IMG/VR virus record: IMGVR_UViG_3300011831_000028
Strand: one strand, 5' to 3'
DNA: 36,868 nucleotides
Source: a virus
Lineage: Duplodnaviria > Heunggongvirae > Uroviricota > Caudoviricetes
In this document: positions 8,019 to 36,303 of the stretch, piece after piece
Numbering within the stretch: position 1 is the first letter of the stretch
How the letters are laid out: every line of letters begins with the position of its first letter
Notes under the pieces: model-generated
Seen by the model: only the letters and a program-made list of their open reading frames with translations
The model's database searches: none
Told to the model about the DNA's origin: nothing
Translations under genes and position numbers: made by a program

Positions 8019-8534
8019 TCAGAGGCCGAGGGCGTTGCGGTGCGCTTCCATCAGGTCCACACCGTCCACAATTTCCACCATGTTGATAAGGTCCACTTCA
8101 TAGAGCACCTCACCATTGATGGTCAGCTTCGCGTAGCTGTTGGTACTGGTCACTTTGGTGGTGTTGCTTTCGCCCGTCTTCCACTCGCCGGAATCCACTT
8201 CTTTGTGACGTCCACGCACGACAAGCTCCACGGCCTGCACTTCTCCGGTATCGTCACGCTGGATAGAGCCGGTAAAGCGCAACTGGATGCCATCCACCGT
8301 GGCTTTACCCATCTGCTTAAACAGCAGCAGTTCAGTACCACCAATGGAAAATTCTGTGTCCAGCGCACTGTCATCAAGCCCCAGATCCACATCAACTGCA
8401 CCAGGCATTCCGCCGCCGCGATACTTCTCATATTTGCGGGTGAATTTCGGCAGCGTCAGCGACTCTACGATCCCCTGCCAGTTGTTCCCGTCGTTAAACA
8501 GGTTCAGATGTTTTAATTTGCGTGGTAAAGCCAT
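8019..8534 (-). CDS. FII: tail tube protein gpFII-like
   Basis: 171-aa ORF in the P2 FI-FII-E order. Confidence 0.85.
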   Translation of the reverse strand: MALPRKLKHLNLFNDGNNWQGIVESLTLPKFTRKYEKYRGGGMPGAVDVDLGLDDSALDTEFSIGGTELLLFKQMGKATVDGIQLRFTGSIQRDDTGEVQAVELVVRGRHKEVDSGEWKTGESNTTKVTSTNSYAKLTINGEVLYEVDLINMVEIVDGVDLMEAHRNALGL

Positions 8535-8543
8535 GTTGTCCCC

Positions 8544-9716
8544 TTACGCGCTGACCTGGCTGGCGAAATTCACCAGGTACTGATCGGTGATGCGCTGGCG
8601 CAGCATCAGATTTTCAAGTGGCGGCACTGGCGTGTAGTCATAGTCGATGGTGAGTTTTCCGGCTTTCAGCGTGTCTTTATCGTTCACCGACTCATCCAGC
8701 CAGCAATCACCACCAATGAGATAGCCCTGACTGACCAGGCTGCGCATTTTGGCGCGGATACCTTCGATAATGTCGCGCGCCAGCGACGGGTTCAGCGGTT
8801 TGTCCACCGCCCACATGTGCGCTTCTGCCATTGTGTCCATCAGTACCTGCGCTGTGCGGGTGTAGTTTTCGAAGGCAAAGAGCGGGTCATCACTCAGACA
8901 GCGGGAACCCCAGAAGCGGAAACCGTCCTTGCGCACAAGCGTGGTGACGTCGTTCTGGTTCAGCAGTCCCGCATCTGTTGCCGGGTCCTGCAGATCCCAG
9001 AACACATCAGCAGAAATTCCGGTGACACCGTTCACGCCCACGTTGGACAGGCTTTTGTGCCACCCAGTCTGCTCATCAATTTTGGCGCGCAGACCAAGCG
9101 CACGGGCGGTGGCATATGCCATTGCTTCGGCGTTCAGCACCGTGTCCCAGCCAGTAAAGTCAGGCCAGATCAGCATCCCTTCGCGCTGGCTAAAGTTTTC
9201 ACGGTAAGTGATCGCCTCCTGCACTGTCTTGCAGCCATACGCTGACAGGTAAGCAAACCCACGCAGGCTTTGCGCCACGCTCAGCAATTCAGTCGCAACG
9301 GCTTTGTTATCGTGGCCTGGCACGCCAAGAATGCGCGGTTTAACGCCGAGCTGTGACTGGGCAGATAACAGAGCTTTCATGCCTGTTTTTTTACCTTCAG
9401 CAGTCACTGCGCCGATGATATTGGTCGTGGTTTCTTCTTCCGTTTCACCCTGCGGCACACGCACAACAACGGTCACGGGTTTTGCCTGGTCAGCGATGGC
9501 ATCCAGCGAACGGGCCAGCGTGCCGGACTCACCCGCTTTACCGCTGGCAGTCAGCACATCAGTGATCAGAACAGGTTTGTTAAGAGGAAACATTTTTGCA
9601 TCGGCATCATCGCCCGTGCAGACCATGCCCACGATGGCGGTGCTCACCGTGGTAATGGATCGGGTGCCTTCGTTGACTTCAACAACGCGCACCCCGTGGT
9701 GGTAATCCTGAGCCAT
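8544..9716 (-). CDS. FI: contractile tail sheath protein gpFI-like
   Basis: 390-aa ORF at the head of the FI-FII-E-T-U-D operon; size and position match P2 FI. Confidence 0.85.
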
Positions 9717-9792
9717 AGTGGCGAACCTCCTGATTGGATTAGGCTTCGCCCTATGTTGAAGTGATTGTGCCTGACAAACAGCTAAGCGCAGT

Positions 9793-9810
9793 TGTACCGT
9801 TATTCACACA
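9793..9810. promoter_or_regulatory. putative Ogr-dependent late promoter element (TGT-N12-ACA) upstream of FI
   Basis: tgtaccgttattcacaca; shares the extended TGTACCG..CACACAAA context with the site at 21654-21671. Confidence 0.45.
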
Positions 9811-9858
9811 AAATGACGGTATTTGTCTACTTGCAGGGATAATCAAAATAATGCTGAT

Positions 9859-10425
9859 TCAGGGGGATTCATTGCTCTTATTTGCCGGAAATTTTCTATA
9901 AATTGTGGAAACACCCACATCAAAAATCAGTGCAATACGCTGTCTTGATTCTCCGGCCTCGAGTAAACGCCCAATCTGTGCCCACTGTTCGGTGGTCAAC
10001 TTAGGACGGCGTCCACCTACTCTGCCTTTGGCACGAGCTGCAGCCAGCCCTGCCCTGGTACGTTCAACTATCAGTTCGCGTTCCATTTCAGCCAGGGCAC
10101 CCATGACATGAAAAAAGAAACGGCCCATTGGGGTGCTGGTATCAATACTGTCAGTCAGGCTTCGGAAATTCACGCCTTGCTGACGCAACTCTTCTATCAG
10201 CGTAACAAGATGCCGCATACTGCGCCCCAACCTGTCCAGCTTCCAGACAACCAGCGTGTCTCCTGCCGATAGTGTCCTGAGCAGTTTTTTCAACCCTGGT
10301 CTGTCGGACTTAGTGCCACTGATTTTATCCTCAAAAATTCGCTCACATCCCGCGCAGTTCAGTGCATTACGTTGCAAATCGGTGTTCTGGTCATTTGTTG
10401 ACACGCGTACATAGCCAATAAGCAT
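9859..10425 (-). CDS. serine DNA invertase (Pin/Gin/Hin/Cin family)
   Basis: MLIGYVRVSTNDQNTDLQRNAL.., catalytic Ser region and C-terminal HTH; start placed at Met16 of the track ORF by alignment to recalled Pin. Confidence 0.9.
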   Translation of the reverse strand: MLIGYVRVSTNDQNTDLQRNALNCAGCERIFEDKISGTKSDRPGLKKLLRTLSAGDTLVVWKLDRLGRSMRHLVTLIEELRQQGVNFRSLTDSIDTSTPMGRFFFHVMGALAEMERELIVERTRAGLAAARAKGRVGGRRPKLTTEQWAQIGRLLEAGESRQRIALIFDVGVSTIYRKFPANKSNESP

Positions 10426-10480
10426 GAGCATCCCCCTGAATAAAAACCGGGGATGATGCCAGTTAACCATTATCTCTGCA

Positions 10481-10506
10481 TTTTCATAAACGTTGGTTTG
10501 GGAGAA
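10481..10506. repeat. gix-like recombination site (left boundary of invertible segment)
   Basis: Reverse complement ttctcccaaaccaacgtttatgaaaa shares the first 14 nt (ttctcccaaaccaa) with the site at 12167-12192; half-sites fit TTnTCnnAAACC. Confidence 0.65.
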
Positions 10507-11079
10507 GGCTCTGCATTACCTGTTGGTGTCCCTGTTCCGTGGCCTTCAGCCACTCCGCCAACAGGCTGGCTGAAATGCAATGGTGCGGCTTTTTCTGCTG
10601 AAGAATACCCGGAACTGGCAAAGGCTTACCCGACAAATAAATTGCCAGATTTACGTGGTGAGTTTATTCGTGGCTGGGATGGCGGGCGAGGGATTGATGG
10701 GGGGCGCATACTTCTCAGTTGTCAGAGTTTTGCTTTCCAGGACCATGCGCACGCTCTGCCAACCGGAGTGGGTAATCCGTCATACCAGATGGAAAGCGAT
10801 ATCTATACGGTTTTCAACGATGAACCAGAAATACCCAGTGCGGTCCTGAGTCCATCGTCGTCAGGAACATCATGGGACGCAACCAGTAGGGCAGACAAGG
10901 TAATCCTTTATCGCAAGGACCTTTCACCAACAGGTAATAACAACGAAATAGCGCCCGGATTACCACCATTCAGGACTTACAGGGCATCGACCTCAGACGG
11001 TGTTACTCATCCGTCCGTGTACGCATCTGAAACCCGTCCGCGCAACATTGCATTTAACTACATCGTGAGGGCTGCATAA
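10495..11079 (+). CDS. silent alternative tail-fibre C-terminal cassette (Sv'-like), promoterless in this orientation
   Basis: Frame reads NVGLGEGSALPVGVPVPWPSATPPTGWLKCNGAAFSAEEYPELAKAYP.. (tail-collar-type fibre tip) directly after the crossover site; opposite strand to H. Confidence 0.65.
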   Translation, partial: GLGEGSALPVGVPVPWPSATPPTGWLKCNGAAFSAEEYPELAKAYPTNKLPDLRGEFIRGWDGGRGIDGGRILLSCQSFAFQDHAHALPTGVGNPSYQMESDIYTVFNDEPEIPSAVLSPSSSGTSWDATSRADKVILYRKDLSPTGNNNEIAPGLPPFRTYRASTSDGVTHPSVYASETRPRNIAFNYIVRAA

Positions 11080-11684
11080 TGGCGAAAGCAAAATTAAACA
11101 GTGCGTTTATTGCCACCGTGGCAGGAGAAATCACTGTGTACAACTACCGGGGCGACACCCGCGAATACATATCCTCATCGCTTGAGTATCTGCCTGTGGG
11201 GGTGGGTATTCCTGCCAATTCCTGTACCGATGCGCCCGGCACACATAAGGCTGGTTATGCAATCTGCCGTTCTGCAGATTTTAACTCATGGGAATATGTG
11301 CCAGACCATCGCGGTGAAATTGTCTATGGCATCGAAACGGGGGAATCAAAAGAAATTACTGTGCCGGGGGATTACCCTGAAAATACGACCACTTTTGCCC
11401 CATTAACGCCATACGATAAATGGGATGGTGAGAAATGGGTAACAGATACCGAGGCACAGCATAGCGCCGCAGTAGATGCAGCAGAAGTACAGCGCCAGTC
11501 TCTGATTGATGCTGCTATGGCTTCCATCAGTCTGATTCAGCTGAAATTGCAGGCCGGACGTAAACTGACGCAGGCAGAAACAACCCGCCTTAACGCTGTG
11601 CTGGATTACATTGACGCGGTGACGGCAATAGATACCAGCACCGCGCCTGATATTATTTGGCCTGTATTCCCTGAGACTGATTAA
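11079..11684 (+). CDS. tail fibre assembly chaperone (Tfa/U'-like) for the silent cassette
   Basis: 201-aa ORF with conserved Tfa C-terminus ..RLNAVLDYIDAVTAIDTSTAPDIIWPVFPETD; start overlaps the Sv' stop. Confidence 0.8.
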   Translation: MAKAKLNSAFIATVAGEITVYNYRGDTREYISSSLEYLPVGVGIPANSCTDAPGTHKAGYAICRSADFNSWEYVPDHRGEIVYGIETGESKEITVPGDYPENTTTFAPLTPYDKWDGEKWVTDTEAQHSAAVDAAEVQRQSLIDAAMASISLIQLKLQAGRKLTQAETTRLNAVLDYIDAVTAIDTSTAPDIIWPVFPETD

Positions 11685-21717: not shown

Positions 21718-23484
21718 ATGAACACCACACTGACACCCGCAGATCTCGATCCCCGTCGGCAGGCCATGCTGCTGTACTTTCAGGGATACCGCGTAGCCCG
21801 CATTGCTGAAATGCTGGGCGAGAAAGTTGCAACCGTTCACAGCTGGAAAAAACGCGACAAGTGGGGTGACTATGGGCCGCTGGATCAGATGCAGCTCACC
21901 ACCGCCGCACGCTACTGCCAGCTCATTATGAAGGAGCACAAAGAAGGGAAAGATTTCAAAGAGATTGACCTGCTGGCGCGCCAGTCGGAGCGCCATGCGC
22001 GGATCGGCAAGTTTAACAATGGCGGCAACGAAGCCGACTTAAACCCTAACGTCGCCAACCGCAACAAAGGCCCGCGCCGTCAGCCGGAAAAGAACGTTTT
22101 CACCGATGAACAGATTGAGAAGCTGGAAGAAATCTTCCATTCCTCCATGTTCAACTACCAGCGCCACTGGTGGGAAGCCGGAAAAACCAACCGCATCCGC
22201 AACCTGCTGAAGTCACGCCAGATCGGCGCGACCTTCTATTTTGCCCGTGAAGCCCTGATTGACGCCCTGCTAACCGGGCGTAACCAGATTTTCCTTTCCG
22301 CCAGCAAGGCTCAGGCCCACGTCTTTAAGCAGTACATCATCGACTTCGCCAAAGAAGTGGAGGTGGAGCTGAAAGGCGATCCGATGGTGCTTCCTAACGG
22401 GGCCACGCTGTACTTCCTCGGCACCAATGCCCGCACGGCCCAGAGTTACCACGGCAACCTGTATCTGGATGAATATTTCTGGATACCGAAATTCCAGGAG
22501 CTGCGCAAAGTGGCTTCCGGTATGGCTATTCACAAAAAATGGCGACAAACCTATTTTTCCACACCATCCAGCCTGACACACAGTGCTTATCCGTTCTGGT
22601 CCGGTGCGCTGTTCAACCGAGGGCGCAACAAAGCCGATAAGGTGGACATCGACCTGTCCCACAGCAATCTGGCCCCCGGCCTGCTGTGCGCAGACGGGCA
22701 GTACCGCCAGATAGTCACTGTGGAAGATGCGGTGCGCGGCGGCTGTAACCTGTTCGACCTCGACCAGTTGCGCATGGAGTACAGCCCGGACGAATACCAG
22801 AACCTGCTGATGTGTGAGTTCGTGGACGATCTCGCGTCTGTGTTCCCACTCAGCGAGCTGCAGGCGTGCATGGTGGACAGTTGGGAAGTCTGGACCGACT
22901 TTCATGCACTGGCCCTGCGCCCGTTTGGCTGGCGCGAAGTGTGGATCGGATATGACCCGGCGAAAGGTACGCAGAACGGCGACAGCGCCGGATGCGTGGT
23001 GGTGGCGCCGCCAGCCGTGCCGGGCGGTAAGTTCCGCATTCTTGAGCGTCACCAGTGGCGCGGAATGGACTTCCGCGCCCAGGCTGACGCCATCAAAAAA
23101 CTGACCGAACAGTACAACGTGACCTATATCGGTATCGACTCAACCGGCGTTGGTCACGGGGTTTACGAGAACGTGAAAGCGTTTTTTCCTGCCGTCCGGG
23201 AGTTTGTCTACAACCCCAACGTTAAAAACGCCCTGGTACTCAAGGCCTACGACATTATCAGCCACCGCCGTCTGGAGTTTGACGCCGGACACACCGACAT
23301 AGCGCAGTCCTTTATGGCAATCCGTCGCGCCACCACCGCCAGTGGCAACCGCCCGACCTATGAAGCCAGCCGCAGCGAAGAAGCCAGCCACGCCGATCTG
23401 GCCTGGGCAACGATGCACGCACTGTTTAACGAACCGCTGCAGGGCGAATCCGCCAATACCAGCAATATTGTGGAGATTTTTTGA
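21718..23484 (+). CDS. P: terminase large (ATPase) subunit gpP-like
   Basis: 588-aa ORF divergent from O, followed by Q with 4-nt overlap. Confidence 0.85.
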   Translation: MNTTLTPADLDPRRQAMLLYFQGYRVARIAEMLGEKVATVHSWKKRDKWGDYGPLDQMQLTTAARYCQLIMKEHKEGKDFKEIDLLARQSERHARIGKFNNGGNEADLNPNVANRNKGPRRQPEKNVFTDEQIEKLEEIFHSSMFNYQRHWWEAGKTNRIRNLLKSRQIGATFYFAREALIDALLTGRNQIFLSASKAQAHVFKQYIIDFAKEVEVELKGDPMVLPNGATLYFLGTNARTAQSYHGNLYLDEYFWIPKFQELRKVASGMAIHKKWRQTYFSTPSSLTHSAYPFWSGALFNRGRNKADKVDIDLSHSNLAPGLLCADGQYRQIVTVEDAVRGGCNLFDLDQLRMEYSPDEYQNLLMCEFVDDLASVFPLSELQACMVDSWEVWTDFHALALRPFGWREVWIGYDPAKGTQNGDSAGCVVVAPPAVPGGKFRILERHQWRGMDFRAQADAIKKLTEQYNVTYIGIDSTGVGHGVYENVKAFFPAVREFVYNPNVKNALVLKAYDIISHRRLEFDAGHTDIAQSFMAIRRATTASGNRPTYEASRSEEASHADLAWATMHALFNEPLQGESANTSNIVEIF

Positions 23485-24518
23485 TGGGAAAGAGTAAGAA
23501 GAACCGCGCTGCGGCGACGAAACAGATCCAGCTTAAAAGTCAAACTACAGCCGAAGCATTCAGCTTCGGCGATCCCGTTCCTGTTCTGGACCGCCGAGAA
23601 CTGCTGGATTATGTGGAATGCGTACAGATGGACCGCTGGTATGAGCCGCCCGTCAGCTTTGACGGACTGGCGCGCACCTTCCGCGCTGCCGTTCATCATA
23701 GTTCCCCGATTGCAGTAAAGTGCAACATTCTGACCAGCACCTACATCCCTCACCCGCTGCTCAGCCAGCAGGCTTTTTCGCGTTTTGTGCAGGACTATCT
23801 GGTATTTGGTAACGCCTACCTGGAGAAACGCACGAACCGCTTCGGTGAAGTTATCGCCCTTGAACCTGCCTTGGCAAAATACACCCGACGCGGGTTAGAC
23901 CTGGATACCTACTGGTTTGTGCAATACGGTATGACCACGCAGCCATATCAGTTCACGAAAGGCAGCATCTTTCATCTGATGGAACCGGACATCAACCAGG
24001 AGATCTACGGCCTGCCCGGTTATCTTTCTGCTATTCCATCCGCCCTGCTCAACGAGTCTGCCACGCTGTTCCGCCGCAAGTATTACATTAACGGCAGTCA
24101 TGCAGGCTTCATCATGTATATGACCGACGCCGCGCAGAACCAGGAAGATGTGAACAACCTCCGCAACGCGATGAAAAGCGCCAAAGGCCCTGGCAACTTC
24201 CGCAACCTGTTTATGTACTCGCCTAACGGCAAAAAGGACGGGCTTCAGATCATCCCGTTGTCAGAAGTCGCTGCGAAAGATGAATTTCTGAACATCAAGA
24301 ACGTGAGCCGGGACGACATGATGGCTGCACACCGCGTACCGCCTCAGATGATGGGAATTTTGCCGAATAATGTTGGGGGGTTTGGGGATGTGGAGAAGGC
24401 AAGTCGGGTATTTGTTCGTAATGAATTAATACCTTTGCAAAAACGTTTCGAAGAATTAAATTTATGGCTAAAAGATAATATTATTACATTCAAAGAATAT
24501 CAACTATCCCTAGACTAA
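23481..24518 (+). CDS. Q: portal protein gpQ-like
   Basis: 345-aa ORF; P2 gene order Q-P next to cos. Confidence 0.85.
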   Translation: MMGKSKKNRAAATKQIQLKSQTTAEAFSFGDPVPVLDRRELLDYVECVQMDRWYEPPVSFDGLARTFRAAVHHSSPIAVKCNILTSTYIPHPLLSQQAFSRFVQDYLVFGNAYLEKRTNRFGEVIALEPALAKYTRRGLDLDTYWFVQYGMTTQPYQFTKGSIFHLMEPDINQEIYGLPGYLSAIPSALLNESATLFRRKYYINGSHAGFIMYMTDAAQNQEDVNNLRNAMKSAKGPGNFRNLFMYSPNGKKDGLQIIPLSEVAAKDEFLNIKNVSRDDMMAAHRVPPQMMGILPNNVGGFGDVEKASRVFVRNELIPLQKRFEELNLWLKDNIITFKEYQLSLD

Positions 24519-24565
24519 TTAATAACCACCTCTATGAGGTGGTTAACAAGAATAAACCTAATTAA

Positions 24566-25975
24566 TTACTCATCTACTCTGATTTTTTGTTTTTTATTAT
24601 TTTGAGTTAAGACATTTATGGTAATAGATGTATACGGATGAAAGTCAGGCACTATACTTTTAACCTCTCCATTTTCAAGAAAATGATGTGCTATTGAAGG
24701 AAATAAATCAGGATCTACAGGATATTTAGCATTAGGATTATGATACATATTTAAACCTTCTGCCCATGTTTCTGTAATATCGCCTTCTTTCACTTCAAAA
24801 CTAAATGCTGCTGGATATAATGCCTCTGGGTCATGATCATGGCAGTAACCACTCCTAAATAATCTAAGGTCACTTCTTCCAAAACCAGCCAGTTTTCCCA
24901 TCCGATTAAACTTCGATATAGTACCACTATTAGAACTAAGGACGGCCGAAATATTTTCAGACTCATCCAAGAAGAAAAAGCCTGAAGGAATTTCCTTTTT
25001 CTCAAATTGATGCGATATAATTTTCTTAGTTGCTAAACTGTAACATCCATCTTCAGATTTAACATGCTCATAGCGAATACCATAAAGATACTGCCAAAGT
25101 GCACTATGGGACCAAATCATAGAGTTTGGTTCATGAAAATCAGCAATTGCGAAAATTAAAGGATTCCCCTTAACATGTTCTAGATCCCAGTATCGAGTTT
25201 TCTTTTTCAGTTTAGAATAGAGAGAACTTCCAAATTTAATCGGCATATAATTCTCTATTTTCTCTAGCAATTCTTCCTTACTTTTAGGTTCAGATAGCAT
25301 TTCAGATGATTGATTAATATCATTCCCTGTTGGATTAACCGTTACAGCTTCAATGCAAATAGTATTACCATACTTACGTGCCACATAATCAGGGGCATTA
25401 AACTGCCTATCTAGCCAAAAGTGTTCCTCTCGTAAATATGCGAAAAGATATAACTCCCATAGCCGGGCATCAAAACCTGTTGTCTGAAACTGCTCTATAA
25501 AATTCCCGTCGACATCCTCAAAATGATTCATCATTTCCTTGATTATCCCTGTTGCAGGCGACCAGTTCGCGTATTTACCAAATAATGAAAAATGATGATG
25601 AAGTTTATCTGGTGTAACTATAGGTGTGAATAAATCCATTGCTTTATAAGTTTCATCACCTTGTGGAAATACTTTTACGTTTAATTTAGTATGCTTCCGC
25701 ATTAATTTCTTTAGTTTTGCTCGTGCAGAATTCATTTCTGAAACACTAGTAAATAGGTCAATACATCTATATCTCCCACTTAAGTCTCTTGCTAAAACAA
25801 TACCGCTATAATCTTCATCGATTTGATCCAATAATAGTGCCCCTAGCAGGAACTCTCTCGGACTACAGTACCACTCAAACTCATAGCCTAAAAGTTCAGT
25901 ATTTGGCATTCTGGTCCAATCAACAAAAGCATTAAACCTCTCTTTACTCATTTTTTTTATATCAAGAAAAGACAT
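24566..25975 (-). CDS. hypothetical 469-aa protein, A+T-rich accessory gene between portal gene and cos
   Basis: Uninterrupted ORF with GAGG Shine-Dalgarno 8 nt upstream of ATG; no family recognised by eye; convergent with Q. Confidence 0.6.
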   Translation of the reverse strand: MSFLDIKKMSKERFNAFVDWTRMPNTELLGYEFEWYCSPREFLLGALLLDQIDEDYSGIVLARDLSGRYRCIDLFTSVSEMNSARAKLKKLMRKHTKLNVKVFPQGDETYKAMDLFTPIVTPDKLHHHFSLFGKYANWSPATGIIKEMMNHFEDVDGNFIEQFQTTGFDARLWELYLFAYLREEHFWLDRQFNAPDYVARKYGNTICIEAVTVNPTGNDINQSSEMLSEPKSKEELLEKIENYMPIKFGSSLYSKLKKKTRYWDLEHVKGNPLIFAIADFHEPNSMIWSHSALWQYLYGIRYEHVKSEDGCYSLATKKIISHQFEKKEIPSGFFFLDESENISAVLSSNSGTISKFNRMGKLAGFGRSDLRLFRSGYCHDHDPEALYPAAFSFEVKEGDITETWAEGLNMYHNPNAKYPVDPDLFPSIAHHFLENGEVKSIVPDFHPYTSITINVLTQNNKKQKIRVDE

Positions 25976-26072
25976 CTTTCTACCTCATCACGAAAAAATA
26001 TTTTTTCCTAAAAAGACTTAAGTTAGCTTAATCTATTGATAAAAAAAAGCTAAGTAACGACCAAATACGCGC

Positions 26073-26095
26073 GCTCGTATCCCCGCCACGCCTGC
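26073..26095. other. probable cos site (cohesive-end region)
   Basis: Reverse complement reads GGCGTGGCGGGGA.., matching the start of the recalled 186 cos sequence GGCGTGGCGGGGAAAGCAT and close to P2 GGCGAGGCGGGGAAAGCAC. Confidence 0.5.
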
Positions 26096-26142
26096 CCGCT
26101 TTATGTAGTGGTTTTCATGCACCTGCATGATCTACGCAAAAG

Positions 26143-26164
26143 CCCGCCAGTTCTGGCGGGCCTT
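26143..26164 (-). terminator. GC-rich hairpin, probable terminator for the leftward A/dinI-like transcript
   Basis: agcccgccag ttc tggcgggcc; T-run follows on the minus strand (cttttgcg). Confidence 0.4.
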
Positions 26165-26296
26165 AGCAAAAACGATCCTCAAACGATCATGCGATCTCAT
26201 GCGGCATAGACATGCACTACAGAGCTAACGCCTCGCAAGGGCTCGTTGTTCAACCTTGCTGACGCCAGAAGCAAGTTCAGACGCCAGCAACGTTTC

Positions 26297-26530
26297 TTAA
26301 TGCAGCCAGCTGTCGTCTTCCCACACCTTCTGCATAATTTTCATCACTTGTTTTCTTTCTTCGTCCAGTTGCAGTCCGGTTAGTTCCACACCGTTAGAGC
26401 TACCTTTGCGAATGCGAATTACCGTTTTGGGATACAGGGGGCGCAGATTGCGGTAAAGCTCGGATTCAAGGGCGTCCAGGGTAGACTGGCTAATCTTCTG
26501 CTCTTTATCGATCATTATTTCAATGCGCAT
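26297..26530 (-). CDS. DinI-like protein (possible Tum-like SOS module component)
   Basis: MRIEIMIDKEQ..LDALESELYRNLRPLYP..VIRIRKGSSNGVELTG.. resembles recalled DinI (MRIEVTIAK..ALAGELSRRIQ..VSVRYAAANNLSVIG); GAGGTG SD upstream of Met25 of the track ORF. Confidence 0.65.
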   Translation of the reverse strand: MRIEIMIDKEQKISQSTLDALESELYRNLRPLYPKTVIRIRKGSSNGVELTGLQLDEERKQVMKIMQKVWEDDSWLH

Positions 26531-26540
26531 AAAAGTCACC

Positions 26541-26729
26541 TCAGCTGATGACATCCATTGAGCGGTTGTATTCGTGGGTTCTGATTTTTGCCATGAGTTC
26601 ATCAGTCAATTCAGAAACCCACTGCAGAGCCAGCCCCTTCTCTTCATCACTACACTCACTAGCCGCTACAAGCTTAAGAAAAAAATCAATGCGCTGGAGC
26701 TTCAAAGACTCCAAAAAATAGTCCTGCAT
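26541..26729 (-). CDS. small hypothetical protein (62 aa) co-transcribed with the dinI-like gene
   Basis: AGGAGG 4 nt upstream of ATG at 26729; LexA box immediately upstream. Confidence 0.5.
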   Translation of the reverse strand: MQDYFLESLKLQRIDFFLKLVAASECSDEEKGLALQWVSELTDELMAKIRTHEYNRSMDVIS

Positions 26730-26882: not shown

Positions 26883-29297
26883 TTAATACAGGTTCCGCCA
26901 CTGATCATCTTCTTGCAAACGCTGGTTCCGATAGAAGATACGCAGGCCTGCTCCTGACGGAATACTGCCTCCGCGAAGGAGTAAATCGACCTCTTTCTCG
27001 CTGCCATCAAATCCTCTGGACTTCAGCTCATACACGAGCTGCAGTCGCTGATGGTCTGTAATTCGCTGTTTGTAGTCTTTACGCCGTTTCGGTTTCACCA
27101 GGCGTAACCTTGCAGCCAGTTCCCGGCGCTCTTTTTTGTTCATACTGTGCAGGTAATCGTGCAACTCCTTGTCATCCATGCTGGTAATGTCCGTTCTGGG
27201 GTCCCCATCAGCTGATTTATCTTTCTCCTGTTGGTTCAAATTTTCAGCAAGGGGACAGTTATTGCCACGAGTCCAAGGGGCGCAAGCGCCCTGGTCGGCT
27301 GCCGCCTCCTGAACGTCAACGACCTTACGAACCATTTTCCATTTCATTGCATGAGTGCAGATCTTGCCCTGTACAATGGGTGACCAGATGCCATAAATAC
27401 GAATACCGTGATCGCCATAAGCGGTCGGCTCTTCGTTAATTTCATAAGCTGTTCTGATAAGGTGATATTTGCGGGGAACCAGTACGCCGCCCTGCTTCAT
27501 GATGTAGGTGGCAAAACAGCCAGCATCAGCGGCAGCCAGGATGGCATCAAGGCGCGGGTCATCCAGTACCGGCGCACCTGCTTTTTTGTCACCCTGTTGC
27601 CTTGCCGCCTGACCAGCCAGCAAGCGAAGTTCACGGTACGCCTGACGCCCCGGAATACCAAAGAAGCGGAACTGCTGAACACGATGCAGAGACGCCCAGG
27701 CATTAACGTATTCGGCGTTATCACGCAGGGATTTACCCGTTTCCTTGCTGATCTCGCCAGCCAGACCACGTCCGTCAATGTTCTTACTGATGTATTTCGC
27801 GATGTAGCTTGTCGGCGTTCCTTTGCGCGGGTTTATCAGCTCAGACTTAAAGCGTGGACCCGTGTTATTGCCCAGTTCCTCGCGGTCTTCACGGATGGCA
27901 AACTTACGCAACAATGCAGTAATGGCGCGGCGGTCTTTTTTGCGCATGAAACACATGAGATGCCAGTGCACAGTACCGTCATGGTGCGGCTCAGCCACCC
28001 GCACGCCATACCAGCGCAACCCGGCTTTGTGCATAGCCTTACGAAATGCAGCAAACATGCCGACCAGATAATCGCTGCTTTGTCTTACCGTCGCATTTGT
28101 CCAGGTTGGGTTTGGTCTGCCGTTATTGAGCGTAGAATGGAAACGTGACGGACAGGTAATGGTGTAGAAAACGGCGCAGTCACCACGCATTTCCGCGATA
28201 AGCTCCAGACCTTTAACACAGGCCATCATCTCATTGCGGCGGTGCGCCGGGTTGCTGCTGCTGGCGTTTACCACATCTTCCATATCCAGCGTGTCGCCGT
28301 CTTCGTTCACCAGTTCATGAGAACGGAAAAACTCCAGCGACTTGCGGCGCTGCTCACGTTTATGCGTCACTGCTTCATAGCTGACATAGGGAGATGCTTT
28401 TTTGCTGACCAGGCAGACAGCACGCAACTGCTCTTCCCGCCATTCGCAACGTATCTTCCACAATTTTCGATACCACCAGTCGGCGCAAAGCATACGTGCC
28501 AGCGAACCCGGTATGAGTTCATAGGGCACGGGTTTGCGGCGGTTTCTTTTCCGACGGAGTTTCTCAAACGCAGGCGGGATAACATCCAGACGCAGGGTTT
28601 CCGCTGCCACCTTTTCCCATGTCTTGCGGATTTCTTCTGGCTTAACGTCATCGGAGGCATACAAATCACCACAAGCGGCCTCAAGACACATGCTCATATG
28701 CGCTGCTACCAAGGTGGACAGGCGTTTTACCTGATCCTGACTCATTTCAGGCAGGATCAGCAGGCCCTCAAGCCTTTGATGGCTTGCCATAAAACGGAAA
28801 GAAGCGGATAGCTGACTGTCGCGTACATACTCCAGTCGCTCCAGACATGACTTAATCGTCTCACGCAAATAGCGGGAATAAGCCTTTGGCCTGCCCAGGC
28901 TGCTGAAGTATTCGATACGTTGCATCAGCGGCTTGCTGATGTGGGTGGGCTGGGCGCTGACGTCCGCCAGAATGACCATGTCCGGGTTAAAACGCTGCTG
29001 CTCATGCGCCAGCTTTGCCCGACTAATGAGATTATCCTGCTCCATTTCGCGCTGGACAGGATCACGGGATTCATTAAAGAAATAACGCTCCCAGACCTGC
29101 TCACTCAGTGCATCGCGGCGCAGCTGTTCCTGCTCGTTATCGGCAGCGTACAGAGTGATCATGTTTGAAAGTGCAGACTCCGGCGCAACTTCCGCCGGGT
29201 CCAGATAAGGGTTAATGGCCTTTTTCGGGCCGTTCCATGAAAATGCTGCAGCGGCCTCGTTAAAGCCGCTAGAGTTGCTCATATCATCATGACTCAT
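26883..29297 (-). CDS. A: replication initiation endonuclease gpA-like (rolling-circle)
   Basis: 804-aa ORF in the P2/186 A position between early genes and cos. Confidence 0.85.
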
Positions 29298-30151
29298 ACA
29301 CGCACCTCGTACACAGCAGAACTATCCACGCCACGCGAAGGATCAAATCCCACCCAGCAGCGCGCCCCGGAAACAGCAATGATTTCTGTTGCAGATTTAC
29401 TCTCGCCAGCCGACACGCCGATGCTGCGTTTTGCCTTGATGTAGTGGTGAGTGAAATTGCGATACAGCGAACGAATCAGGGATGTGTCACTGTTAGAAAC
29501 AATGACCGGATGACCTTCAGATGATCGATGTTCAAGAACGGATGCCAGGTGATACTGGTCATCCTCAGTGAAGCCATCAGTGTGATAGCCGGAAAACGTA
29601 CCGTCATAAGGCGGATCGCAATACACCACATCCCCCGCCTTCAACATCGCCAGCGTTTCATCAAAGCTGGCGCAGATAAACGTTGCTCGCTGGGCTTTTT
29701 CTGCAAATTTGCGAATTTCTTTTTCAGGGAAATACGGATTTTTATAATTCCCGTAGGGAATGTTGAAATGCCCGCTCTTGTTATAGCGACATAACCCACG
29801 GTAACCATGACGATTGAGATACAGGAAATATACCGCTTTCATGAAATCAGTAATTTCAGTGGAGTAATTAAACTCCTGCCTTATGTTGTAATAAGCCACC
29901 TCCCTGTTTGCTTCCTCAAATAAAGCTCTGGCACGAGATATAAACGCCTCGCAATCAGCAGCAACCTTTTTATAGAGGTTGATTAAATCAGGATTAATAT
30001 CCGCAACAAGATAGCTGGGGTAATCCGTCTCTATCATCACAGCACAAGAACCCGCGAAAGGTTCAACCAGTCGCGGGCCAGCAGGAAGGTATTTTTTCAG
30101 TTCTGGCATAATGGCGGTTTTATTACCCGCCCATTTCAGGATGGTGCTCAT
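29294..30151 (-). CDS. DNA N6-adenine methyltransferase (Dam family)
   Basis: LKWAGNK, FAGSCAV (motif I) and DPPY (motif IV); start at Met21 of the track ORF, ATGA overlap with upstream gene. Confidence 0.85.
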
Positions 30152-30375
30152 ACAGCACCTCCGTTGTAATGTTTGCCTTTCAGCTCTGCGATTTCCTGAC
30201 AGGTAATGCAAAGCTGCACACCCGGAATGGCGCGACGTCGTGCTGGCGGAATTGGTGCTTCACACTCAATGCAAAGCACGCGGGATACGCCCGGCGTTTT
30301 GGCGTGGGCAGCACGGATATGACGCTGGCGTTCTTCTTCAACGCGCTGCTGTACGAGATCCATTGCATCAGCCAT
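30148..30375 (-). CDS. TraR/DksA-family C4 zinc-finger protein
   Basis: CIECEAPIP..RRRAIPGVQLCITCQ. Confidence 0.75.
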   Translation of the reverse strand: MADAMDLVQQRVEEERQRHIRAAHAKTPGVSRVLCIECEAPIPPARRRAIPGVQLCITCQEIAELKGKHYNGGAV

Positions 30376-31952: not shown

Positions 31953-32077
31953 GATGCAACATTCCTCGTTTAATGTTGATTAATCAGGACGAATACGGAT
32001 CGTTTGTATTTTGTGAACATCATAAACATACGATCGCATAATGAAATCGTCAAGACAAAAGTTCACTTGGAGTGACC
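31953..32077. promoter_or_regulatory. cI/apl divergent promoter-operator region
   Basis: 125-bp intergenic with palindrome tgattaatca (31975-31984), repeated atacg(g)atcg (31993-32002 and 32029-32037) and inverted gtgaac/gttcac (32013-32018 and 32061-32066). Confidence 0.5.
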
Positions 32078-32647
32078 ATGAATTTGGAGAAAGGCGGACG
32101 AGGCGCTATAGAGCGCATGGTAGAAGCATATGGCTTCAAGACTCGACAGGCGTTGTGCGATCACTTAGGAATCTCTAAAAGTACTCTCGCCACACGCTAT
32201 ATGCGTGACTCATTCCCTGCTGAATGGGTAATCCAGTGCGCACTTGAAACGGGCGCCTCGCTTAACTGGCTCACGACCGGACATGGTTCAAAGCAAACTT
32301 CAGGTAATACAAATACTATGGAAGTCGTTAAATATGTATTATCTGATGGAACCTTGCAGGAAGATGGTTTTTATATTTTCGATAAAGAATTTCTACCATC
32401 TACGCTCAAAAATCCGTTTGTAATCACCGATAACAATTCCGTTTTTATTTGCGATAAAGAGTTTAACGATATTCGTGACGGCAAATGGGTAATAAGTATT
32501 GATGCCGAAGTAACAATCCGCGATATCACTCGTTTACCTGGTGGAAGAATCTTAGTTGAAGGTGGAAATAGGGCTTTCGAATGTAAAAAAGAAGAAATCG
32601 AAATTATTGGAAAAATTATAAGCATAACAGTTAAGTACTTTGAGTAA
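32078..32647 (+). CDS. cI: immunity repressor CI (186-type, N-terminal HTH plus C-terminal oligomerisation domain)
   Basis: MNLEKGGRGAIERMVEAYGFKTRQALCDHLGISKSTLATRYMRD..; GGAG 6 nt upstream of ATG at 32078 (track ORF begins at GTG 32072). Confidence 0.8.
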   Translation: MNLEKGGRGAIERMVEAYGFKTRQALCDHLGISKSTLATRYMRDSFPAEWVIQCALETGASLNWLTTGHGSKQTSGNTNTMEVVKYVLSDGTLQEDGFYIFDKEFLPSTLKNPFVITDNNSVFICDKEFNDIRDGKWVISIDAEVTIRDITRLPGGRILVEGGNRAFECKKEEIEIIGKIISITVKYFE

Positions 32648-32697: not shown

Positions 32698-33621
32698 ATG
32701 TCAACTCAAAAATTAAAATTTAGCCATATCAAAAACGATCTGAAAGCAATAGTTATGCAGAATCGTGGAGGGCAAAAAGTTATTGAGCGTATACTCCTAG
32801 CCTATGGCTTCAAGTCACGACAGGCATTATGTAATCATCTAGGTATTTCCCAAAGTACTATGGCCAACAGATATGCACGTAATACCTTTCCTGCAGATTG
32901 GGTTGTTATATGTTCCATAGAAACAGGAGCATCAATTGAATGGTTAGTTCTTGGTTCAGATACTGCTCCTTCATCAGAGCAATATTCTGAAAAACATGCC
33001 GTTAATGGCCTTTGCAATGAAGTATACATTCCCACTATAAAGTTCGATAATGAAAAACTCATGAATTTTAACCGAGGGGGTAAGGCAACAATAGAACGAA
33101 TTGTCGAGGCTTACGGTTACAAAACGCGCCAAGCATTAGCTGATCACCTAGGTATTTCAAAAAGCACATTAGCCACACGATACATGCGTGACATTTTTCC
33201 TGCAGACTGGGCTTTGCAGTGTGCAATAGAAACGGGCCATTCTATTGAATGGATTTCATTTGGTACAGGAGAAATGAAAAACGCAAAAAATAAAGATACT
33301 TTAACATTAGTGAAAAAAGTATTAATCAATGGCAAGTTAATAAATGATGGCTCATATTTATTTGACCCATGCTTTCTACCTTCCAATTTAAAAAATGCAT
33401 TCGTAGTATCTACCGAAGACTCTGAATTAATATGTGAAATGGGTTTTAAAGATGTACATGATGGTAAGTGGCTAGTAAATATTGATGGAGAGAATTCATT
33501 TAGAATGATAACTCGACTACCTAAAGGACGAGTTTATATTTCATCCCAAAATCACTCTTTTGAATGTTCGCTTACAGATATTGAGTTTATTGCAAAAGTT
33601 ATTATAAGTTGTTTACATTAA
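32698..33621 (+). CDS. CI-paralogue with two tandem CI-type HTH domains and a CI-like C-terminal domain
   Basis: Residues ~23-88 and ~117-182 each align to the CI N-terminal domain; second copy has recognition helix SKSTLATRYMRD identical to CI; C-terminal ~100 aa aligns to the CI C-terminal domain. Confidence 0.7.
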   Translation: MSTQKLKFSHIKNDLKAIVMQNRGGQKVIERILLAYGFKSRQALCNHLGISQSTMANRYARNTFPADWVVICSIETGASIEWLVLGSDTAPSSEQYSEKHAVNGLCNEVYIPTIKFDNEKLMNFNRGGKATIERIVEAYGYKTRQALADHLGISKSTLATRYMRDIFPADWALQCAIETGHSIEWISFGTGEMKNAKNKDTLTLVKKVLINGKLINDGSYLFDPCFLPSNLKNAFVVSTEDSELICEMGFKDVHDGKWLVNIDGENSFRMITRLPKGRVYISSQNHSFECSLTDIEFIAKVIISCLH

Positions 33622-33646: not shown

Positions 33647-35164
33647 GTGAAATGTGGTGATTGTAATTGGAACTGGGATGAAGAAACTACCTTTATATTA
33701 GACGACGAAGAGGAAATTCTTTCCAAAGACAAACTTAATCGGAGACACTATGCAGAATATCTATATTTTTATCTTAAGGAAAAGGGGCAAAAGAACAACA
33801 CGGTAATCAACCTTAATGCAGAATGGGGAGCTGGTAAAAGTTTTTTCATAAAGAGATTTTATAACTCAATAAAAGATGCACACCCATGCGTTTACATTGA
33901 TGCCTGGAAGCAAGACTTTTCTGATGATGCATTTTTAACCCTTTTTTCTTCTTTGTCACAACAATTGCAAACATATGCAGGAAAACTTGATGCTCGATTG
34001 ATACAAAGCGGCCATGCTATCGGACGCTTTACAAAAGGTGTTCTACCTGAAATCATATCTGGCCTAATCAAGACTTATGCAGGAGTAGATAACGTAGGTG
34101 ATATAGCCAAAGAAGCCTCATTAATAATGCTGAAGGAACACCAGGAAAAACTGAAGAGCATTAAGGTATTAAAAAAAGAACTAACGTTATGGTCTAGGTT
34201 GGCATATGAAAATAGTTTTTCATGTCCTATATTTATCTTTATAGATGAATTAGACAGATGCAGGCCAGATTATGCAATTTCTCTTTTAGAGATTGTTAAA
34301 CATATATTCGATATTAAAAATTTTGTCTTTATTATTGCTACTGACACAGATCAATTACAACATTCAATCAAGAATGTTTACGGTAATGATTTTTCCGCAA
34401 ATGACTATTTAGGCCGTTTTTTTCATAGAAGATTTACTTTAAAACAACCTGAACTTAAAGATTTAATTAATGGTGTTGTTGGTGATTATATTGGTACCGA
34501 TTTTGAAAATATCACATCAAAAACATACCCACTAACAGCAACATTAGAAGACTTTTCAATAAATATTTCCAACGTATTTGAAGCATTTGGGTTAAATCTA
34601 AGAGACTCAATCCGAAATACTGAAAGGTTAATAGACATTCTTAAATCTGATTTAGTCAAAAAGAAAGTAGATTATATTTTTATAATTTCGCTAATGATTA
34701 TATATGATAAGGATCGTCAAATTATAGATGGACTAATTGGTCGAAGAAATGCAGCACAACGTTTCACTGATTCGATAAAGCAAAGCTCCAATTTAAAAGG
34801 TGTTTCTCAAGCCATCCTTGAATTAAATCTTGATACAAATCAGCAAAGAATAGGTGTCAATTATATCTATAGAACGGCGAGCAGTAGATTATTCATCTCA
34901 CAGATCGAGCCCAAAATAAATTTAACATTAATAAATTACTTAGATGTTGCATTGTATTTTATTAATAATATAAACATGCTTAAATCAAGTATAAAAAACA
35001 ATGGGCAAAATTCACTAATGATTATATCTCAACAAGGCCCTATTGATGGTGATACAGCTATAAAGTATTTGCAAGGAGCCCTTATAGAGAATGGTCTGAA
35101 TACATCTTTTTATGCCTTACATAATTACATTGAATTAATTGAACTGGCCACATCATTTGATTAA
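33647..35164 (+). CDS. KAP-family P-loop NTPase
   Basis: Walker A NLNAEWGAGKSFF and Walker B IFIFIDELDRCRPDYAISLLE, both hallmark KAP signatures; GTG start with GGAG upstream. Confidence 0.7.
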   Translation: MKCGDCNWNWDEETTFILDDEEEILSKDKLNRRHYAEYLYFYLKEKGQKNNTVINLNAEWGAGKSFFIKRFYNSIKDAHPCVYIDAWKQDFSDDAFLTLFSSLSQQLQTYAGKLDARLIQSGHAIGRFTKGVLPEIISGLIKTYAGVDNVGDIAKEASLIMLKEHQEKLKSIKVLKKELTLWSRLAYENSFSCPIFIFIDELDRCRPDYAISLLEIVKHIFDIKNFVFIIATDTDQLQHSIKNVYGNDFSANDYLGRFFHRRFTLKQPELKDLINGVVGDYIGTDFENITSKTYPLTATLEDFSINISNVFEAFGLNLRDSIRNTERLIDILKSDLVKKKVDYIFIISLMIIYDKDRQIIDGLIGRRNAAQRFTDSIKQSSNLKGVSQAILELNLDTNQQRIGVNYIYRTASSRLFISQIEPKINLTLINYLDVALYFINNINMLKSSIKNNGQNSLMIISQQGPIDGDTAIKYLQGALIENGLNTSFYALHNYIELIELATSFD

Positions 35165-35250: not shown

Positions 35251-36303
35251 ATGGCAGTACGAAAACTCACCACAGGAAAATGGCTTTGCGAATGTTACCC
35301 CGCCGGACGTAGTGGGCGTCGTGTGCGTAAACAATTCGCCACCAAAGGCGAAGCACTGGCTTTTGAGCGTCACACGATGGAAGAAACCGAAGCAAAGCCC
35401 TGGCTGGGTGAATCAGTGGATCGTCGAACACTGAAAGACGTGGTTGAGCTATGGTTCAAACTACATGGTAAATCTCTGACTGCTGGGCAGCATGTCTATG
35501 ACAAATTGCTGCTGATGGTTGACGCTCTGGGCAATCCCCTTGCAACTGATCTAACCTCTAAAATGTTTGCCCACTATCGAGATAAACGCCTGACAGGTGA
35601 GATCTACTTCAGTGAGAAATGGAAGAAAGGAGCAAGCCCGGTCACCATTAACCTGGAGCAAAGCTATCTAAGTAGTGTTTTTAGCGAACTATCCCGCCTG
35701 GGCGAATGGTCGTATCCGAACCCACTGGAGAACATGCGAAAATTCACCATCGCAGAAAAAGAGATGGCATGGCTTACCCATGAGCAGATTGTTGAATTAC
35801 TAGCTGATTGCAAACGTCAGGACCCAATTCTGGCACTGGTAGTTAAGATATGCTTAAGCACAGGCGCACGCTGGCGAGAAGCCGTAAATCTTACCCGCTC
35901 ACAGGTGACCAAATACCGAATTACCTTTGTAAGAACGAAGGGGAAGAAAAACAGAAGCATCCCTATCAGTAAAGAGCTTTACGAAGAGATCATGGCGCTT
36001 GATGGGTTCAATTTCTTCACAGACTGCTATTTTCAATTTTTATCCGTGATGGAAAAAACGTCTATCGTGCTCCCTCGCGGTCAACTCACACACGTTCTGC
36101 GCCATACGTTTGCGGCGCACTTCATGATGTCGGGTGGAAACATTCTGGCTTTACAAAAAATTCTCGGGCACCACGATATAAAAATGACTATGCGTTACGC
36201 ACATCTGGCACCGGATCATCTGGAAACGGCGCTCCGTTTCAATCCTCTGGCAACGCTGCCAAGTGGCGACAAAGTGGCGGCAGCGGTTGGCATTACCCCG
36301 TAA
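35251..36303 (+). CDS. int: tyrosine integrase (P2/186 Int family)
   Basis: 350 aa with C-terminal ..HVLRHTFAAHFM..GHHDIKMTMRYAHL (R..H..R..Y catalytic pattern). Confidence 0.9.
   Translation: MAVRKLTTGKWLCECYPAGRSGRRVRKQFATKGEALAFERHTMEETEAKPWLGESVDRRTLKDVVELWFKLHGKSLTAGQHVYDKLLLMVDALGNPLATDLTSKMFAHYRDKRLTGEIYFSEKWKKGASPVTINLEQSYLSSVFSELSRLGEWSYPNPLENMRKFTIAEKEMAWLTHEQIVELLADCKRQDPILALVVKICLSTGARWREAVNLTRSQVTKYRITFVRTKGKKNRSIPISKELYEEIMALDGFNFFTDCYFQFLSVMEKTSIVLPRGQLTHVLRHTFAAHFMMSGGNILALQKILGHHDIKMTMRYAHLAPDHLETALRFNPLATLPSGDKVAAAVGITP

Follow-up and report, generated by a model that had tools for sequence, protein, structure and literature searches.

The stretch of DNA analysed here, hereafter the window (36,868 nucleotides, IMG/VR record IMGVR_UViG_3300011831_000028), is an Escherichia coli 186/P2-like prophage adjoining ybjL, and it carries an A+T-rich gene for a 469-residue protein close to its cos site. 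Judging from the sequence, this gene (24566-25975, minus strand) is very probably a member of the PD-T7-1 single-gene defence family, residing in the cos-proximal hotspot of P2/186 phages. The fuller account, in which a 186/P2-like prophage carries a PD-T7-1 defence gene in its cos-proximal hotspot as lysogenic-conversion cargo and the gene product would act through a nuclease mechanism, is likely as a whole. Earlier work has already described the PD-T7-1 family, which PADLOC and DefenseFinder list, as well as the hotspot and the slot on the Q side of cos. The present analysis adds the exact boundaries of the cassette, a map of two cargo slots around cos, a confident structural model, a set of invariant residues and the observation that the N-terminal domain is optional, about 38% of family representatives being without it.

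PD-T7-1 originates from a functional selection in E. coli ECOR46 (protein RCQ85672.1), where it was cloned as one coding sequence with its native promoter; it leaves adsorption unaffected, and its protection extends to T7 and, with greater strength, to T-even phages (Vassallo et al. 2022, PMC9519451). The domain call in that work consists of weak HHpred matches (Hjc 80%, PDDEXK_5 55%, residues 171-219). A second allele, from strain NILS69 (genome DABQWS000000000.1), protects K-12 against a Teseptimavirus when expressed there (PMC12409345). Anti-phage activity is thus known for the ECOR46 and NILS69 alleles, and the allele in the window is assigned to their family by sequence. Our literature search found no mechanistic study of PD-T7-1.

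Membership in the PD-T7-1 family

The assignment is carried by the match to the PADLOC model PDLC04073 (PD-T7-1), in which residues 7-457 align to profile positions 2-449 of 452 (E=1.3e-196, 651.7 bits). Diverse relatives score 520-658 bits against this model; the protein, with 652 bits, falls within that range, and is therefore a typical member. The sister model PD-T7-5 matches residues 113-436 (E=1.4e-56, 190 bits), these two being the only PADLOC matches, and PHROG 8571 (function unknown) matches residues 108-465 (E=5e-152). An earlier reading made from the sequence alone, the sequence-only reading, had described the gene as an orphan of no assignable family. This description has to be given up, as there are a PADLOC model, a PHROG and at least 3,727 relatives in a 90%-clustered database, which form 1,778 clusters at 50% identity. 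Its proposal of anti-phage cargo is probably correct, given the full-length match to PD-T7-1.

Within the family, the nearest relatives outside the protein's own 90% cluster share 72-76% identity with it, and most of the family 59% or less; the ECOR46 reference protein was not found among the listed members of that cluster. The exact protein is recorded on at least 1,000 contigs under the name 'hypothetical protein'. Searches of Pfam and NCBIfam gave no usable match to it, and a profile search of PDB sequences returned one chance match (E=0.74). The open reading frame (ORF) begins with ATG and encodes 469 residues followed by a stop codon in the ORF listing; this start is supported, because homologues from many bacteria align from residue 1, with the motif ERFNAF at residues 12-17.

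The gene also has the single-gene organisation of the family. The cassette that contains it holds one gene, and the flanking sequence of 47 nt and 92 nt leaves no room for a second. A 71-residue ORF at 24790-25005 was considered as a partner gene and rejected, since it sits within the 469-residue gene in another frame. PD-T7-1 moves between defence hotspots on its own: the genes neighbouring its relatives are entirely different across Burkholderia, Pseudomonas, Klebsiella and Yersinia phage contexts, with no conserved partner, and in Burkholderia a relative lies beside a type I restriction-modification system. As separate observations, in Klebsiella a relative adjoins a P4-like satellite's primase (loci L012/L013, 8001-9368), and another occupies the Z/fun slot between the tail-fibre and sheath genes of the Yersinia Peduovirus vB_YpM_46 (locus L014, 3489-4838).

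The exchangeable cassette beside cos

The gpQ-gpA interval, in which the gene lies, is the P2 defence hotspot of Rousset et al. (2022, PMC9122126) and hotspot #1 of Vassallo et al. (2022, PMC9519451), and the P2 hotspot is also described in Odegrip et al. 2006. To delimit the insertion, the window was compared with four other 186-like prophages; a fifth, that of strain S88, bears the same cassette, is 99.8% identical over the window region and has the gene annotated as 'hypothetical protein' WP_000008839.1. Homology with the four is lost at 24443-24461, within the final 57-75 nt of Q, and returns at 26068, which leaves 6 nt to the cos 19-mer; these breakpoints delimit the exchangeable cassette as 24444-26067. 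The features of the locus are as follows.

23481-24518, plus strand: portal gene Q, left anchor of the hotspot (ORF and RefSeq annotation of the S88 locus)
24444-26067: exchangeable cargo cassette, 1.62 kb, GC content 0.34 (homology breakpoints against the four 186-like prophages)
24523-24545: hairpin where the Q and PD-T7-1 genes converge, with a 10-bp stem, a 3-nt loop and a folding energy of -14.7 kcal/mol
24566-25975, minus strand: PD-T7-1-family gene
25976-26067, minus strand: A+T-rich upstream region, GC 0.26, containing the GAGG Shine-Dalgarno sequence
26068-26217: conserved cos block of about 150 bp between two cargo slots, 89-99% identical in the four comparison prophages
26074-26092, minus strand: cos 19-mer GGCGTGGCGGGGATACGAG, 14 of 19 positions identical to P2 cosL/cosR
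26297-26602: DinI-like gene between cos and gpA (Pfam DinI), with a small ORF also in this interval
26883-29297, minus strand: replication endonuclease gpA, right anchor of the hotspot (ORF and RefSeq annotation)

The sequence-only reading had placed the gene between Q and cos, convergent with Q, with its own Shine-Dalgarno sequence and in A+T-rich surroundings within a GC-rich backbone, and all of this is borne out. The two genes lie on opposite strands 47 nt apart, and GAGG stands at 25986-25983, 7 nt 5' of the ATG. The gene has a GC content of 0.350 (0.262 at third codon positions), about 5.8 standard deviations below the backbone mean (0.543, standard deviation 0.033, minimum 0.470, in 1,410-bp windows of the same size as the gene), which is far beyond the variation within the backbone itself. 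The swapped cassette includes the last 19-25 codons of Q (24444-24518), and the last 75 nt of Q have a GC content of 0.25. We also observed that the C-terminal ~20 residues of the portal change with each cargo, while every version keeps the pattern L-x-E-(L/I)-N-x-W-L...I-I-x-F-x-x-Y.

The claim of separate acquisition agrees with the distribution of the gene, which is present at ≥99.7% identity in 25 of 5,426 complete E. coli genomes, against 1,287 for its flanks. With a Klebsiella allele as DNA probe, the same 25 E. coli genomes and no others were recovered. A chimeric query joining the Q end to the cos block found both parts together in 49 genomes only, a count that is confounded by divergence on the A side. 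In two of the 25 genomes, those of the broiler-chicken E. coli strains 33-6 and 58-3 (hits H28 and H29), the PD-T7-1 gene is interrupted by IS1. The region was correctly called variable: with identical breakpoints, the four comparison prophages carry four different cargoes, namely a SieB-family gene, a three-gene set, a P-loop NTPase and the retron Ec67 reverse transcriptase, the last at exactly this slot in strain ECCTRSRTH03. Retrons Ec67 and Ec86 take the place of DNA lying between cos and a terminator of a 186-related prophage, as reported by Dodd & Egan (1996, Virology 219:115). The gene is thus not conserved across related prophages, nor is its product a core P2/186 structural or packaging protein.

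The cos site itself was found by reading and by aligning the ends of P2; a search with the P2 cos 19-mer allowing up to three mismatches gave no match, the site having five. Its flanks, GCGGGC and GCGCG, are common to P2 as well, and putative cut positions within 26074-26092 are placed by analogy with P2. A cos 26-mer occurs exactly once in each of the five related prophages, and in S88 and all four comparison prophages it lies beyond the cargo. This means that cargo on the Q side is usual for 186-type prophages, so that the earlier statement, that such cargo usually lies on the A side, is right for P2 itself and wrong for the 186 group. The cos block 26068-26217 is kept also in two prophages with extra cargo beyond it. 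Inside the block, a hairpin with a T-run (26141-26164, -27.6 kcal/mol, z -5.1) terminates the early A/DinI operon. The hairpin at 24523-24545 (fold z-scores -3.9 on the plus and -3.4 on the minus strand) is a possible bidirectional terminator, although it went uncalled in the terminator scan for lack of a T-run. Upstream of the gene, 25976-26067 is the presumed promoter region; a consensus promoter scan found no site there, and its sites overall were not above those in shuffled sequence. In an Rfam search, the sole match, to IS009, was below threshold (23 bits, where the gathering score is 117) and was treated as chance.

Several further observations concern this locus. A second cargo slot, on the A side of the cos block (about 26218-26286), is empty in the window and filled in two of the four comparison prophages, with an HsdR-N-domain protein in E. 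coli YD786 (L006) and an LA2681 HEPN protein in ECCTRSRTH03 (L007). In YD786, the cos 26-mer (10062-10087) falls within the annotated 5' end of a P-loop NTPase coding sequence (8344-10188), which would mean either that the annotation places the start codon too far upstream or that coding sequence and cos overlap. The YD786 prophage is truncated, with partial terminase and gpD genes. In S88, gpA is annotated as frameshifted (L001, 22584-25024). The window has an intact 804-codon ORF in its place, and its prophage may for this reason still be replication-competent.

Domain organisation and proposed mechanism

An AlphaFold2 model of the protein, built from 119 homologues, has a predicted local distance difference test score (pLDDT) of 91.2 and a predicted template modelling score (pTM) of 0.91. 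It shows a compact globule of cytoplasmic type with no signal peptide or membrane segment, divided into three parts.

25640-25975, minus strand: N-terminal alpha+beta domain, residues 1-112 (AlphaFold2 model)
25082-25639, minus strand: central PD-(D/E)xK nuclease-like core, residues 113-298
24569-25081, minus strand: C-terminal beta-rich domain, residues 299-469

Conservation was assessed over 151 family representatives, down to about 34% identity. The N-terminal domain, whose modelled secondary structure comprises helices at residues 11-18 and 81-98 and strands at 30-37, 43-50, 56-63 and 69-78, is absent in 57 of them, and the PD-T7-5 and PHROG 8571 profiles begin to match at about residue 108-113, without this domain. 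In the model, residues ~113-298 appear to follow the helix-strand order of a PD-(D/E)xK core, whose canonical fold is alpha-beta-beta-beta-alpha-beta, and a PD-(D/E)xK-like segment is present near residues 170-220. Essentially invariant in the core are D156, Q164, R171, E174, P195-D196, E209-A210, K255 and Y262-W263; in the C-terminal domain, they are K355, F356, R358, E402, W404 and N413-P414. The catalytic lysine that canonically stands on beta3 is missing from the protein: position 211, that of the ExK lysine, is V in 74 and T in 68 of the 151 representatives, and K in none. D196 and E209 are spaced 13 residues apart, the same spacing as in Hjc. A Foldseek search against the PDB gave nothing at E<=1e-3, the C-terminal domain being without a structural relative there.

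We propose the following mechanism. The protein would be a metal-dependent nuclease of the PD-(D/E)xK type, with an acidic triad formed by E174 on a helix, D196 at the start of beta2 and E209 on beta3, and the invariant K255 on the following helix would probably take over the role of the missing beta3 lysine. We favour this use of E174, D196, E209 and K255, with slightly better than even confidence. The conserved C-terminal beta-rich domain (K355, R358, E402, W404, N413) probably binds the nucleic-acid substrate, and a modulating or sensing role is probable for the optional N-terminal domain. In an infected cell, the enzyme would cut phage nucleic acid, most likely DNA. As for its acquisition, the 1.62-kb A+T-rich cassette 24444-26067 would have replaced everything from the 3' end of the portal gene to cos. 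By analogy with the other alleles in the literature, the lysogen would express the gene from the gene's own promoter, adsorption would not be blocked, and the plating of T7-like and especially T-even phages would be lowered.

How such a nuclease might spare or sacrifice the cell can be pictured differently. A possible but distinctly less probable course is abortive infection by the same family, in which an inactive nuclease is triggered by a phage product or by the state of infection and breaks down the nucleic acid (DNA or tRNA) of host and phage alike, so that the cell dies before phage release; the N-terminal domain would perhaps keep the nuclease inactive. However, direct immunity was found in 7 of the 11 nuclease-like systems of Vassallo et al. 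(2022, PMC9519451), and the 38% of representatives that lack the N-terminal domain would need other means of restraint. It is also conceivable, though rather unlikely, that the enzyme resembles restriction nucleases that depend on modification or structure, sensing the hypermodified cytosine of T-even phages or branched replication and recombination intermediates of T7 and T4, and thus sparing the host chromosome. Stronger reported protection against T-even phages than against T7 would suit such an enzyme, as would the closest local match of the catalytic hairpin, which is to the junction resolvase Hjc, and the fact that, as with Type IV enzymes, one gene suffices and no methylase is needed.

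Replacement of the canonical beta3 lysine by V or T across the 151 representatives could also mean that the nuclease fold has lost catalysis and that the protein binds and blocks phage DNA or a phage protein. We consider this improbable, because the three acidic residues and K255 are invariant down to ~34% identity, as expected of a working metal site, and relocated lysines are well known in the PD-(D/E)xK superfamily, where they were reportedly covered by the survey of Steczkiewicz and colleagues in 2012. Hardly credible at all is a prophage gene without a role in defence, such as a virulence or surface factor. This idea draws on the name 'glycosaminoglycan attachment protein' in UniRef and some GenBank records, and on carriers that include extraintestinal pathogenic E. 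coli (ExPEC) such as S88. The name, which apparently comes from a short-motif annotation, was rejected as uninformative; moreover, anti-phage activity has been demonstrated for two family members, homologues occur in defence hotspots of unrelated bacteria, and the modelled cytoplasmic-type globule has neither signal peptide nor membrane segment.

Going beyond the metal-dependent nuclease proposed above, one could speculate that PD-T7-1 is a distinct class of defence nuclease, which would combine a relocated-lysine core with a C-terminal reader of new fold that recognises a feature common to T7-like and T-even infections, for example branched replication intermediates, and an N-terminal domain that sets allele-specific triggers. 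We regard this as a doubtful extension; if it were true, the diverged allele of the window would differ from the ECOR46 reference in its phage range. In practical terms, WP_000008839.1, a 'hypothetical protein' in ExPEC such as S88, can now be labelled a PD-T7-1 defence gene, and carrying the gene may alter the response of these strains to therapeutic phages of the T7-like and T4-like kinds. Defence research gains modestly: the 186-type hotspot is now mapped precisely, as a 150-bp cos block with a cargo slot on either side and a Q-side cassette that brings its own portal tail, and for PD-T7-1 there is a list of residues to test.

Other cargo in the prophage and comparison with known systems

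The prophage has two further regions that look like cargo or variable segments. Between the immunity region and the integrase gene (35251-36303) lies a second A+T-rich cargo gene (33647-35164, plus strand, GC 0.32), which encodes a KAP-family P-loop NTPase and matches the PADLOC candidate PDC-S20 (E=8e-78), with weaker matches to PifA and QatA. It is preceded by two tandem CI-repressor genes (32072-32647 and 32698-33621), and this module occurs in only 17 complete E. coli genomes, including enteropathogenic E. coli (EPEC) E2348/69. Elsewhere, a serine invertase gene with Resolvase and HTH_7 domains (9859-10470, minus strand) stands next to an opposed tail-collar fragment (10453-11079), which a tail-fibre assembly gene (11079-11684) adjoins. 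The segment 9859-11684, between the tail-fibre and sheath genes, resembles an invertible host-range segment of the Gin/Cin type.

Among known systems, the closest is PD-T7-1 of ECOR46 (RCQ85672.1), with which the gene of the window shares the full-length profile match, the single-gene organisation and carriage on a mobile element in E. coli. A weak PD-(D/E)xK/Hjc-like signal lies at the same position in both (residues ~171-219). The allele described here has 469 residues and the reference about 449, the two being likened through the family profile. PD-T7-5 and PHROG 8571 have the core and the C-terminal domain in common with it (residues ~113-436), and both are without the N-terminal ~110 residues.

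The old and tin genes of P2 occupy the same gpQ-gpA interval near cos, and the likeness extends to the kind of cargo, which is A+T-rich, variable, separately transcribed and phage-excluding. The protein of the window is unrelated in sequence to Old and Tin, since PADLOC reports PD-T7-1 and PD-T7-5 only and Pfam nothing. The side of cos differs too: P2 carries old and tin on the A side, with 187 bp between cos and Q, whereas the cargo here is on the Q side. In this respect, the retron Ec67 and Ec86 cassettes of 186-related prophages are nearer, as they use the same slot, from cos to the end of the portal operon, with a retron instead of a nuclease-like protein.

Other PD-(D/E)xK proteins are more distant. 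There is no family-level sequence match in Pfam or in the PDB sequence search to Hjc, the CdiA-CT toxins (Bp1026b, EC869), XisH or NucC; in the case of Hjc (PF01870), no match extends over the whole ~120-residue domain model, and the protein is not counted in that family. In contrast to these proteins, the one described here lacks the beta3 lysine, is three to four times larger and has two extra domains. It also differs from restriction-modification systems, as the cassette is one gene and the module contains no methyltransferase; the sole methylase nearby is a Dam-type gene of the backbone (29294-30211), which is present as well in prophages with other cargo.
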